Shown here in pieces: positions 11,415-22,591 of a DNA stretch of 26,272 bases. Both the position numbers and the translations under genes were made by a program. Under the pieces are notes generated by a model, which saw only the letters and a list, made by a program, of their open reading frames with translations, was not told where the DNA came from and did no database searches. The stretch is from Catajapyx aquilonaris (taxonomy: Eukaryota): the NCBI GenBank assembly GCA_000934665.2, contig KZ538278.1:62001-88272 (forward strand). Direction: 5' to 3'. Numbering within the stretch: the stretch's first letter is position 1; each line of letters opens with the position of its first letter.

Positions 11415-11620
11415 AAAAACGTCTCCCCACAGCCAACTCCACATCGACACCTCGCCTGCGCCTGCGCCTGCGCATGCGCTGTTCCGTTCATCGCCGATCC
11501 GATCACTCCATCGGATATATGCTACTCCGTAGCAGCTACTGCGATTCCGCTATCCGCTATCCTGCTATCATATATGGTTGTAGTCATATCCGTACGTAGG
11601 GCTGTATACGCAACGAGTGA

Positions 11621-11647
11621 AGGTTAGGTTAGGTTGGGTTGGGTTAG
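11621..11647 (+). repeat. Short (TTAGG/TTGGG)n telomere-like tract
   Basis: AGGTTAGGTTAGGTTGGGTTGGGTTAG read directly. Confidence 0.8.
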
Positions 11648-11810
11648 TACATCGTACCCCTACCCCCTGCCCACATCAAGCAGTGAAAATTAATATTCCA
11701 GCACTGAAAATATCAACACGCTCGTCCCCTCCACGTCATTAGTCATTTAACGGCGGCCTGACCTCTGCGCAGTATAAGAACCCCCCGTCGGAATGAGCCA
11801 TCCCAGCGAT

Positions 11811-12083
11811 GGCTGCTGTAGCGTATCGGTCAGCGCGCTCGACTAAAGATCAGGGGCCGAATTCAGAGAGGTTGCTTAACGTAAACGCGCCCGATTAAAT
11901 CCTTTTAGTCATCCTCGATTAGCAAATTTAAAAGTGCTAGCAAGTGCGATTAGGGGGCGTTTAGCGCTAATCGCCGTCTTTGTATTAGCAGGTTGGTTAA
12001 ATTTGCTAATCGAGGATGACTAAAGGATTTAATCGGGCGCGTTTACGTTAAGCAACCTCTCTGAATTCGGCCCAGAAGGCTGC
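11811..12083 (+). mobile_element. Second tRNA-like SINE head, split by a MITE, B box lost
   Basis: Removing the MITE gives GGCTGCTGTAGCGTATCGGTCAGCGCGCTCGACTAAAGATCAGAAGGCTGCAGG, which looks like the 5' two-thirds of a tRNA (A box TAGCGTATCGG). The sequence stops being tRNA-like where TTCGA is expected. Confidence 0.55.
11854..12073. mobile_element. Young palindromic MITE, probably PIF/Harbinger-type
   Basis: ~78-bp arms (11854-11931 and 11997-12073) are identical apart from a 1-nt indel. Termini are GGGCCGAATTC...GAATTCGGCCC. The flank duplication is CAG (or AG). Superfamily is inferred from the termini and short TSD. Confidence 0.9.
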
Positions 12084-12380
12084 AGGCCCCCCTTCGTCGG
12101 CTTTTCTTCTGTGTCTTTTTTTTCACTCAGTCCCTCCTTATTTTTATCCAGGAATTTATTTAGTACCGTACAGTGCCCTGCAGGAAGTATTGTCAGTCAC
12201 GCGTCATTTTATGGCGAAAATGCAAAGATACCTAGTCGCAGAATAGCGCAATAGCTGAAGCGGCTGCTGAGTAGCAGCTCTCATCTGAGCTTCCCGGCCT
12301 CCCGCACGATGGCGCGCAGGCGAGGTGTCGTTGTGGAGTTGGCTGTGGGGAGACGTTTGTCTATGCGTTTGTCACTGCAC

Positions 12381-14544: not shown

Positions 14545-15842
14545 CTGCCAAACGAATTTTTCGGGCTCAGTTACGGTCGTCATGAGAGCAGATTGGATCT
14601 GCTGTACGCTCCCTCATGCAGTCCCAAGTCGATTTTTTTTCCCCATGACACATCAAATCTCTGCAGTGGCACGCATTCACAGGTACTTTAGACTCGAATG
14701 TTGGCAGGCATAGATTCTCAGTGTCATGCACAATACAATGCCATTAATTAGACAATATTCACCCATGCAATGCATCACAGAGTTAACCTGATCTTATGCT
14801 AACTAACAATGTAAATGCTAGAATAAGACCAGTTATTATTCATCCAAGTTAAATGTTGGAAATTACCATATTCCCTTCAGTAACAGTTTTGCATAATTCT
14901 TATACTGCCTGGTACATGTTAATGAAGCTAAGCGGTAAAACAACTGCTGGTGGGTAACTGAAGCCGAATGACAGTTTTTAGGCCCCCTGCACATAGGTAA
15001 AACTTCACTCAGAGAGCCAAAATGGAATATATATAAAAAGCCGCATTCTTATGCCACACTAACTAGTTATATGACTTTTCAGATCGAGCAGAAAAGAGAG
15101 TTAATCAAGTGGCGCACAGGGTGGGTCTCACCAATACATTCTGGTAGCTTATTATCGCATACAGAGCTTATTGCAATGTGCAGATGCGGCTTTTTTCTGT
15201 AGGACTGCACACTTCTGGATATTTCGAATTATGCTTCATGATGGATGCATGGGAATGTTTGATAAAGTGGTTTCTCAACACTTCAGAATATTCCAGAGTA
15301 CGAAACACATGCAACATAAACCATAGTTGCAATTGTCTAGATTTACTGCACCCGTAGGGACAGTTGCAGGCCTACTAGGCAAAAGAAACTAACCACGCAT
15401 ACAGTATTGGGTGCTAAAACTGGACTGTTGAACGCAACTGGTGGTGTGGCTATGTAATTATGTTCTTTCCCTGTTGCATGAGTTCACTGGACAGACATGT
15501 CATGCTGAAGTTTACAATATAGAATATACCATATACATAACTGTAGACAGTCATCCCTCGGTATAGGACACCATCTGCGCCACATATAATGTCATGGGTT
15601 AGGAACGTGTCACAAATAAAGGTATTTAACAAGGTAAGAGAAATTAGAAGTGCTAAAAAAATTTGGCCTATAATACATCTCTAGTACATCTCAAGCATAG
15701 TATGCTTGGGTCACTCAAGGCTCCGTGTGCAGCAGGGCCCCCGGATTAACATCCTTTGATTTCGACCCCTCAAGCTTAAAGATGTGTTGGCACCATTTAA
15801 AGCCTCCCACCCATTGGCCAATTCCCCCCCCCCCCCCCCCCC

Positions 15843-16273
15843 NNNNNNNNNNNNNNNNNNNNNNNNNNNNNNNNNNNNNNNNNNNNNNNNNNNNNNNNNN
15901 NNNNNNNNNNNNNNNNNNNNNNNNNNNNNNNNNNNNNNNNNNNNNNNNNNNNNNNNNNNNNNNNNNNNNNNNNNNNNNNNNNNNNNNNNNNNNNNNNNNN
16001 NNNNNNNNNNNNNNNNNNNNNNNNNNNNNNNNNNNNNNNNNNNNNNNNNNNNNNNNNNNNNNNNNNNNNNNNNNNNNNNNNNNNNNNNNNNNNNNNNNNN
16101 NNNNNNNNNNNNNNNNNNNNNNNNNNNNNNNNNNNNNNNNNNNNNNNNNNNNNNNNNNNNNNNNNNNNNNNNNNNNNNNNNNNNNNNNNNNNNNNNNNNN
16201 NNNNNNNNNNNNNNNNNNNNNNNNNNNNNNNNNNNNNNNNNNNNNNNNNNNNNNNNNNNNNNNNNNNNNNNNN
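15843..16273. other. Assembly gap (N run) flanked by poly-C and poly-G
   Basis: N run with a C homopolymer on the left and a G homopolymer on the right. Confidence 0.99.
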
Positions 16274-16484
16274 GGGGGGGGGGGGGGGGGAAGCGCGAGG
16301 CATAGATATGAATGGTGGCATTTCCATGGGAACTTGAAAAGTGGGATCTTGTTGAAAGGAGGAGTGAGAGGAGTTTTGCTTGTTGTTCGAGTCGGCTCAT
16401 TTTCGGAAGCTGAAACATGCTGCATTAAATTCCTCGTAAAAAGTAACCCCGTGCTAGTTTACAGTGGATTCCCCTGGATTTCTA

Positions 16485-20063: not shown

Positions 20064-20399
20064 ATAAATATTATTATTATTTTTTTATTATTATTATTAT
20101 TAACTCTTTTTACTCCCCTGAATTTTTATAATTTTTGCCTTTTCTATTCTGCTTGCACTATAGTGTTGTGCAAACATCACCTCAGCTGCTAATGCTCACG
20201 TTAGCAGGGTCAAAATACCAGCCAAGAGGTGATATTCCGAAGCCACAACACCAGCAGCCGGTCGCGGGTCCAGGGTCACCGTGACTGATATGTGTAATAA
20301 ATTGAAAATGATTGATTAGACTTGATCCATACATTGCTACATGAAGTTGATTTCATAGCATGTGAGGTGGTCCTTCTCATTCGCACCACCAGAGAGTTT

Positions 20400-20485
20400 T
20401 AATTTATTTACTTATTTATTACCCCGTTCTCCGACCATTTGGTCGTTTTGGGGGGGGACACATATCACCATTCACACACACACAC
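20400..20485 (-). mobile_element. Truncated SINE/LINE-type 3' tail
   Basis: Minus strand reads (GT)nGAATGG...CCCCCCCCAAAACGACCAAATGGTCGGAGAACGGGGTAATAAATAAGTAAATAAA, the same architecture as the other SINE tails. Confidence 0.6.
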
Positions 20486-20775
20486 CCAGACTTGCGCTCA
20501 ATAAGCTGTGGGAACGTTGAAAACTCAACTTTTCGAAGCTAGTGTAAACTAACCTAACCTACCCTACCCTAACGAACCTAGGCTGAGAAAAATGGACTTT
20601 GTGAAACGCTGCAAATTGAAATCATGGGGGCATGTCCCCAATATAACGGTAGCGTTCTGGTGTGTGAAGATGTGGGGACCCAAAATGTCCCCACAAGAGA
20701 AATTGTGGGGACAGTAGTCCCCACTGTTACAGTAAAAACACATACTTCCAGTCCCACAGCTTATTGAAGACTAGA
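20486..20775. mobile_element. (CA)n-flanked element A with internal CCTAA/CCTAC tract
   Basis: CA tracts at 20473-20485 and 20776-20791. Perfect 16-bp IR TCAATAAGCTGTGGGA (20498-20513 and 20752-20767). CCTAA tract at ~20548-20580. Several GTGGGGAC/GTCCCCAC motifs. Homologous to element B. Confidence 0.85.
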
Positions 20776-21123
20776 ACACATACACACACACGCCACCCGA
20801 TAGCGACCTACAGTTATGGTGACTGGTGACCCACGACCAGCTGCAGGTGTTGTGGGAATATCGTTTTTTGGCTTGTACGAGTATGTTGACCCTGCTAACG
20901 TAACAATTAGCAGCCAAAGTGATGTTTGCACAACACTATAGGCCAAGCAGAATTAGAAAAGGCAGAAATTTTCAAAATTCCGGGGAGTAAAAATAGTTAG
21001 TTTGGTCATCAGAGACACTTGCCAAAAGAAAAGTGTAATTTGTATCCCTGCATGGACCTCAACAGATGTGCACTGTGGTCACTTTGACTGGTAGCATCAT
21101 GCAGAAGCAAATGTAAAACTTAC

Positions 21124-21433
21124 CCTAAGCCAGACAACAGGCATTGGTTGAACAGTAGGGAACTGTGGTGGTGGTTGTTGACACTTGACATCAGAGGTGT
21201 TGAACGCTAGCTTGTCTACCCTGGACGCTTGCTCCACTAATTTCTGTCGATGTTGAAAATTCTCCTTCGTCATGGGAGATCCATGAAGAATTAGCTGCCA
21301 GGAGATAAAGCTTCCCCTTGGGTGCGGGGCCATGTCGCCTTCATCTGAGACTATTAAAGTCCATGTCCCATGAGGCTCTTCACCCCAGCATCGTACAGTT
21401 GTAAAGGTCCACCCATTTAGACCCTCTCTTGAC
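21124..21433 (-). CDS. PCSK7: Internal exon of PC7-like proprotein convertase (end of P domain and juxtamembrane linker)
   Basis: Acceptor TTTCTACACAG|G and donor AGG|GTAAGT bound an open frame SREGLNGWTFTTVRCWGEEPHGTWTLIVSDEGDMAPHPRGSFISWQLILHGSPMTKENFQHRQKLVEQA.... WTFxTVRCWGE, WQLxLxGS and RQxLxExA match PC7 (recalled) rather than furin (MTTHxWxE) or PC2. Confidence 0.92.
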
Positions 21434-21664
21434 CTGTGTAGAAACGTGCAAGATGCATCACATTACTCATGGAAACTGTACTGACAGTGAGACTTCAGAA
21501 ACCTTCATGCTAATGCAATGAAGGGAATAATACTTATAAGTGATCAGTCCTGCATGGAGCATAAATGTCAATAAGTATCTCTTCAGATAATAATTCTACC
21601 TTTGATTGTGGAGGCATAAGCAGGGTGATGCATGAATGACTAAGGCCCACACACACACACACAC

Positions 21665-22009
21665 CCACTCTTGTCTTGACTAAGGCGTGGGGACGGACAT
21701 TGATCACTTTTCACTGCGAGTGTAAACTGATCTAACCTAACCTAACCTAACCTAACCTAACCTACCCTACCCTACCTAACCTACCCTACCCTAAGTAACC
21801 TAGGCTGAGAAAAATGGACTTTTGTGAAACCCTACAAATGAAAATAGTGGGGACATGTCCCCACTAATTTACACATGTCCCCACTGTAATGGTACACTTC
21901 GCGTGTGTGAGACTGTGGGGACCGACAAATGTCCCCACAATTGGAACTGGTCCCCACAGCTACAGTAAAACCACAGACTTCCGTCCCCAGACCTTAGTCA
22001 AGACCTGAT
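21665..22009. mobile_element. (CA)n-flanked element B with internal (CCTAA)n
   Basis: CA tracts at 21648-21664 and 22010-22030. IR TCTTGACTAAGG..TGGGGACGGA, 22/24 (21674-21697 and 21980-22003). CCTAA/CCTAC array at 21732-21794. Shares AACCTAGGCTGAGAAAAATGGACTTT with element A. Confidence 0.88.
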
Positions 22010-22030
22010 CACACACACACACGCACGCAC

Positions 22031-22275
22031 ATCCCTATCCTTGTGAGGTTTTTCCAAAATTTAAAATTTAAAACTAACCTAACCTACAAAAAACACACCA
22101 AATTTTGGGGAAATATATTTTTACTGTCTTTATGAGGTATTTGTCGATTTTTCCCTATCCTTGTGAGGCGAGTGTTCACTATGAGGTACAGGACAACTAC
22201 CTCGTAATGACAAAATTCCTCACAAGGATAGGAAAACGCGCAAAAACACTCCTCACAAGGATGGCAATGCGCGTC
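22031..22275. mobile_element. (CA)n-flanked element C, related architecture with CCTATCCTTGTGAGG motif
   Basis: Motif is forward at 22033-22048 and 22153-22168, and reverse at 22218-22232 and 22251-22264. AACTAACCTAACCT at 22072-22085. CA tracts at 22010-22030 and 22276-22287. Confidence 0.8.
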
Positions 22276-22591
22276 CACACACACACATTCCTGCACATTA
22301 GCATGGTTCCTAAATCCTGATTTACATGTGCACTGCAGCATCCTGAGAGCATATTCTCGCATAGAATTCCATTCCTAGCTGGGAAAAACACCTAGCACGT
22401 TATCGCACCTGTCATGCTTCCTTCCACACAACCTTGAATATAATTGTCCAGAGGGAAGCTTGTCCCTTCACAAACTCATGCTTCAAGCAGTAAATATTCT
22501 TTGCTTTACAAAATTTTACATAAAACTGCACATCCTATACATTAGTAGTTAATTTATGTAAACATGTAAATTACATTATTTTAAACTAATA

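Follow-up and report, generated by a model that had tools for sequence, protein, structure and literature searches.

The window, by which we mean the whole stretch of 26,272 nucleotides that was analyzed (Catajapyx aquilonaris, assembly GCA_000934665.2, contig KZ538278.1, positions 62,001 to 88,272), carries three short elements, here named A, B and C, set among CA repeats. Their parts, all on the forward (+) strand and numbered from the first letter of the window, are as follows.

20473..20485 (+), left (CA)n flank of A, with a CAC core at its end, 20483-20485 (sequence, junction table)
20486..20488 (+), three-base slot left of the A body, here CCA; it varies among 24 A copies and may hold coupling bases
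20489..20776 (+), body of A, with inverted repeats 20498-20513 and 20752-20767
20545..20573 (+), CCTAA/CCTAC tract of A (Tandem Repeats Finder)
20777..20791 (+), right CAC core and CA-rich flank of A (sequence, junction table)
21648..21664 (+), left (CA)n flank of B, with a CAC core at its end, 21662-21664 (sequence, Tandem Repeats Finder)
21665..21667 (+), variable three-base slot left of the B body, here CCA (junction table, triplet comparison)
21668..22009 (+), body of B, with inverted repeats 21673-21697 and 21980-22004
21732..21802 (+), CCTAA/CCTAC tract of B, its length differing from copy to copy
21841-21957 (+), internal GTGGGGAC/GTCCCCAC copies of B, putative arm-type binding sites
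22010..22023 (+), (CA)n common to B and C, serving as right core of B and as left core and slot of C
about 22024..22275 (+), body of C with a decayed left tip and inverted repeats 22025-22048 and 22251-22274
22074-22087 (+), short CCTAA tract of C (sequence)
22150-22188 and 22198-22236 (+), internal inverted pair of C (sequence)
22276..22287 (+), right CAC core and (CA)n flank of C (sequence)

Tandem Repeats Finder places CA runs at 21648-21668 and 22010-22031. A and B align with 81% column identity, while C has no similarity to either of them in a BLASTN comparison within the window. An earlier note on this DNA had described a common layout for the three elements, kept by C in spite of its unlike body, and this description holds: the CA flanks lie on one strand, the CCTAA-type tract shares that strand, and motif copies occur in both orientations. 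The tract is a mixture of CCTAA and CCTAC units in A and B, and in C amounts to only two to three units. Inverted termini, which the note had reported as absent, do occur, as imperfect terminal inverted repeats of 16 nt in A (100%), 25 nt in B (92%) and 24 nt in C (83%). The elements had been placed at 20486-20775, 21665-22009 and 22031-22275, where they are indeed found, but the bodies span 20489-20776, 21668-22009 and about 22024-22275, with three variable bases to the left of each.

Between A and B, at about 21286-21435 on the minus strand, lies an exon that encodes a proprotein convertase P domain (PF01483), presumably of a PC7-like protein, so that the elements are probably located in or beside introns of that gene. 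A is itself nested in another inverted-repeat element, whose 96-nt arms (20123-20218 and 20881-20976) match at 79%. The longest 'inverted repeats' of the window arise from a run of N (15824-16290) between C and G homopolymers and are an assembly gap artefact.

All three elements are copies of dispersed non-coding families, the ends of which are sharp. In the genome searched (286 Mb in 20,583 contigs), BLAST gave 712 candidate copies of B, 304 of C and 687 of A, of which 40 each were scored, and a 24-nt internal A/B anchor had 265 exact matches, 125 forward and 140 reverse, against none for the control. Two sets of copies underlie the counts given below. The junction-table set (32 B, 24 A and 26 C copies) consists of the best BLAST hits and their neighbours and is therefore biased to full-length copies; 12 of the 38 rows of the family C table were removed as reverse-strand double counts or as spanning two copies. 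The anchor set, which leaves out copies already in the junction-table set, derives from the first 100 of the 265 matches, picked without regard to flanks, which yielded 85 stretches and 83 copies; both ends are present in 69 of these, a few rows being out of register by indels and one right end being mis-called. Family B is young, with no substitution outside the tract in 23 of 32 copies, while family A is older, at about 9.6 substitutions per copy from its consensus. The families are real, high-copy and in part very young elements. No copy was present in 200 kb sampled across 20 large contigs. Tandem or local duplication was rejected as an explanation. Several further subfamilies with other end sequences were also seen, and in some places a single CA tract contains members of different subfamilies arrayed head to tail, all pointing the same way (L005, L012, L017, L041, L046, L048, L214, L255, L263). 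The genome has 66 matches to PF00379 (Chitin_bind_4, a cuticle domain), which fits an arthropod host.

The view of the earlier note that these are non-autonomous, orientation-specific mobile elements agrees with the dispersed copies, their favour for CA repeats and the fixed orientation in the junction tables: (TG)4 on the element strand occurs in none of the 82 junction-table copies and in none of the 69 two-ended anchor-set copies. The tabulation of flanks and orientation that the note had set as a test, made here on the two sets of copies, gave a non-random orientation, the tract in 83 of 83 anchored copies and a flanking CA tract (left, right or both) in 58 of 69 two-ended copies, with a weaker tendency in family A (10 of 24, the other 14 having no CA tract on either side). 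Microsatellite targeting was accordingly upheld as a preference for CA repeats with a fixed orientation, but not in the form of CA tracts on both sides as a rule, given that 54 of the 69 two-ended copies have a CA tract to the left and 32 have one to the right, with 28 flanked on both sides and 11 on neither. A CAC stands at the left and right junctions, respectively, in 30 and 28 of 32 B copies, 24 and 22 of 26 C copies, 17 and 12 of 24 A copies (junction table), and 55 and 56 of 69 anchor-set copies. The constant target is the CA/CAC core; long (CA)n flanks are common and are not required. A frequent landing pad is a distinct palindromic element that has a short CA run inside it and 1007 candidate copies in the genome (L002, L004, L007, L018 and others; L243:233-330); the CA runs of its filled copies are longer than that of the empty copy at L007.

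At the junctions, each family reads CAC-NNN-body-CAC-NNN, with the inverted ends flush against the 6-bp slot CAC-NNN. The two NNN are identical in 5 of 32 B, 7 of 26 C and 1 of 24 A copies, where shuffling gives means of 5.8, 8.7 and 0.6, and in 14 of 48 anchor-set copies as compared with 14.6 by shuffling. Since they agree at chance level only, a 6-bp target duplication is ruled out in both sets. The same variant core is found on both sides at L024, L063, L222 and L286, as would be expected if identity rather than sequence matters. In more copies than share a variant core, many young B copies among them, the third core base differs between sides, so that only CA, and not the full CAC, may be shared.

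These counts bear on a DDE transposon, Dada-like or other, which would make a 2-3-bp CA/CAC target duplication, with the left triplet as captured flank or as part of the target. DDE MITEs typically have inverted termini and internal repeats, and the few copies with a variant core common to both sides would agree with a duplication. The third core base, however, differs between sides in many young B copies, and cut-and-paste transposition is not known to leave a foreign triplet of fixed length at one end. Overall, we regard a DDE mechanism as quite improbable. Dada elements resemble A, B and C in being target-specific animal DNA transposons, but they use a DDE enzyme and make target duplications of 6-7 bp according to the accessible parts of a published account (PMC8869645); duplications of that length are excluded by the NNN counts, and assignment to Dada is ruled out.

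The most telling feature is the variable three bases at the left junction. Nine different left triplets occur among the 23 B copies without substitution outside the tract, which indicates that the left NNN is not a product of decay, and no link was seen between left NNN and copy relatedness in a tree comparison. ACA is richer in the left than in the right NNN, with 11 versus 1 of 24 in family A and 33 versus 20 of 48 in the anchor set. The left NNN is therefore not a plain sample of right flanks, and the excess requires either donors that are mainly copies in CA tracts or a triplet passed on from the left junction.

An empty-site comparison, likewise proposed by the earlier note, was made on 11 insertions into other repeats, picked by eye, for which three models of the empty site were matched to uninterrupted units. 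The model with the core once and the right NNN kept was best at L055 (41 of 42, against 38 and 31 for the other models), L059 (40 against 37 and none), L090 (36 against 34 and none) and L087 (36 against 33 and 31). At L078 the no-duplication model was ahead, 33 against 31 of 42 in a CA-rich context, and six of the 11 cases were ties or self-matches. One core plus the right NNN thus fits best in four of 11 cases, where the left NNN is foreign to the site; the reciprocal product, with the left NNN from the target and the right one foreign, was not seen among the 11. A search for an empty allele at one locus (L006) found no joint skipping the element in contigs of four runs.

Bases carried in from elsewhere could also be the 'fuzzy end' of an HUH-type (Replitron- or Helentron-like) single-strand transposition, copied from the parent flank, although we consider this unlikely. 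Replitron-1 is described as inserting orientation-specifically, with short terminal direct repeats and parent-flank bases at one end (PMC10288648, available sections). In those sections its fuzzy ends and duplications vary in length, whereas the slot in our junction tables is of fixed length and symmetric between inverted ends; other Replitrons lack a fuzzy end or a variable duplication, inverted termini are not described there, and the hosts are plants, algae and protists (PMC10288648). Both B strands fold strongly (z -6.2 and -6.8), which would suit such a mechanism, but this folding follows from the inverted repeats alone. The single junction configuration seen is likewise as expected from single-strand exchange. 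Helentrons use T-rich targets, and targets of that type were not seen.

Our preferred reading, to which we give a probability of roughly 0.6, is that a tyrosine recombinase acting in trans, most likely a CryptonV-type enzyme, mobilizes A, B and C as non-autonomous DNA transposons, although no coding partner was found. Judged by analogy, the junction pattern resembles a tyrosine-recombinase overlap with partial identity. The element would be excised in circular form, its two inverted ends serving as core-type sites on either side of the 6-bp overlap. Integration would require identity only on the CA(C) side, which would set the orientation and make every CA unit of a microsatellite a target, and the remaining overlap bases would come along from the previous site and land at the left junction. 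The internal motif copies may act as arm-type sites; most speculatively, the telomere-like tract, which lies between the left end and these internal sites, might serve as a spacer or be bound by a host factor that recognizes telomere repeats. Circular excision, integration into CA(C) in a fixed orientation and the carriage of bases are suggested by the overlap of IntDOT, the microhomology of Cryptons and the insertion of CryptonV elements into microsatellites. Against this reading stand the missing coding partner, the small number of clear empty-site cases (four of 11, with L078 leaning the other way), the absence of the reciprocal product, the ACA excess of the left NNN, its lack of a link to copy relatedness, and the presence of inverted termini.

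CryptonV elements are animal tyrosine-recombinase DNA transposons, some families of which insert specifically in microsatellites (PMC8869645, citing a Repbase report), a precedent that reduces the novelty of the microsatellite targeting found here. No recombinase gene with A, B or C ends was found; insertion into microsatellites is shared, though it is weaker in family A. The terminal direct repeats of Cryptons reflect target microhomology (PMC13465315), which agrees with CA(C) at both ends of our elements, a single copy of it in the empty unit in the four clear cases of 11, and an NNN that is not duplicated. An active CryptonF, CryptonF-1_cRei of Chlamydomonas, has CACCG at its ends, inserts at CAYCG and leaves by clean excision (PMC9977147), and Starships behave like Cryptons in this respect (PMC10104507). 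Like A, B and C, it and other Cryptons combine a short end repeat matching the target with an increase in copy number, and non-autonomous derivatives exist in animals (PMC9977147; PMC3212892); in the accounts available, however, the whole 4-6-bp repeat matches the target, whereas here two to three bases match and three are free. One general feature of Cryptons is not shared, as they are generally described without inverted termini (PMC13465315; exceptions in supplement 1 of PMC3212892) and animal CryptonA and CryptonI are reported there without terminal repeats (PMC3212892), while A, B and C carry inverted repeats of 16-25 nt.

A parallel to the left triplet comes from CTnDOT, whose integrase IntDOT acts on an overlap that joins a conserved dinucleotide to a variable coupling sequence. 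Imperfect inverted core sites flank this overlap, and arm-type sites lie deeper inside the element; identity between the partners counts rather than the letters, and the position of that identity fixes the orientation (PMC2817482, accessible portion). CTnDOT differs from A, B and C in being a bacterial conjugative element with a 7-bp overlap containing GC, as against animal elements with 6 bp containing CA(C) and only one product configuration seen (PMC2817482). On balance, A, B and C probably act like recombinase transposons with a coupling sequence and are probably of CryptonV type, departing from the general Crypton pattern in their inverted termini. Coupling sequences are also used by Tn916.

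Searches for a coding partner, which were insensitive, covered the same genome in its 20,583 contigs. A PF00589 profile search gave no candidates. PF12012 (DUF3504) was matched at two loci only, one of them within a multi-exon woc/ZMYM-like gene, and element ends were absent from both in the 40 kb examined. A pattern built on a recombinase motif had two matches compared with seven in the control, with no supporting frame at the one inspected, and no long copy occurs among the 83 anchored copies. A near-identical frame of 220-230 residues, without a Pfam match, adjoins C copies in two contigs (L035, L037).

Crypton-type transposition chemistry in animals is inferred, and the young B family, with sharp ends and a putative three-base tag of the previous site, allows a direct test of the circle-and-recombine model and, at 340 bp, could serve as a substrate in the hunt for the enzyme. 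Genome engineering would profit from an integrase that inserts in one orientation and needs no more than CA(C) at its target.

The earlier note had also mentioned CA-flanked look-alikes with a six-base tract, and such elements do exist in vertebrate-like contigs. A pattern neutral between five- and six-base repeats, which included the CA flank, found 75 stretches in a metagenome collection, all in record sets MDSO, MDSP and MDSQ, and none in viral contigs. These look-alikes, a strongly CA-rich set, share the layout of CA flanks, inverted ends, internal inverted motif copies and a CAC at the right end, with the tract on the CA strand about 30 bases inside the left motif, and some have the same terminal six bases as family A. 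Their contigs carry animal exons, one of which is nearest to vertebrate brain fatty-acid-binding protein (an indicative match, the PDB being rich in vertebrates). One metagenome contig (L141) joins an animal-type element to two long frames resembling bacterial leucine-synthesis enzymes and is probably a chimeric assembly.

Tract units are spaced by six bases 81 times and by five bases 49 times in 65 look-alikes, as against five bases 460 times and six bases four times in 82 arthropod copies. The vertebrate telomere motif is TTAGGG. For the present host, the telomere motif is inferred from its arthropod affiliation; TAACC/GGTTA is named as the arthropod motif in the accessible text of one paper (PMC10871703). 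The suggestion that the tract follows the host telomere motif is thus consistent with the five-base units here and the mostly six-base units in the vertebrate-like contigs, a comparison of two host sets only. In the genome, (TTAGGG)8 has no match, while (TTAGG)12 has 13 matches in seven places, none of them a long terminal array. Six of these seven places lie in sequence unrelated to the A, B and C families, so the tract is not peculiar to them.

The view that the tract has no role in transposition has close to an even chance of being correct. The tract would then be filler, added by telomerase or grown by slippage where a deletion gave rise to the short elements, or else a passenger that many repeats have in common. 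The number of units varies widely, the units are degenerate and C has only two to three of them; 12 perfect units lie outside the families in six of seven places, as does the tract at window positions 11621-11647, and an origin by telomerase would also account for the match to the host repeat length. What speaks for a role is persistence, at least two units standing upstream of the anchor in all 83 anchored copies and the tract being kept in 32 of 32 B and 24 of 24 A copies, together with a place and strand that are the same in A/B-type, C-type and vertebrate-set elements with differing bodies. Filler added by telomerase or slippage and a host-factor site are about as likely as each other. A far-reaching version of the recombinase reading, which we regard as rather unlikely, would posit an animal-wide group of recombinase transposons that integrates in IntDOT style with a carried coupling sequence. 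A host protein that binds telomere repeats would act as its architectural co-factor, and the tract would co-evolve with the telomere motif of the host, having five-base units in arthropods and six-base units in vertebrates. If the tract is a host-factor site, it would link telomere proteins to transposition and account both for a class of short interstitial telomere-like sequences and for common flanks at CA microsatellite markers. No description of the layout, the carried triplet or the host-matched tract was found in the open literature, Repbase Reports and subscription papers lying outside that search. CCTAA tracts also occur in unrelated repeats, in the window at 11621-11647 within nested inverted repeats (11417-12358) and elsewhere at L096, L101, L102 and L104-L106.
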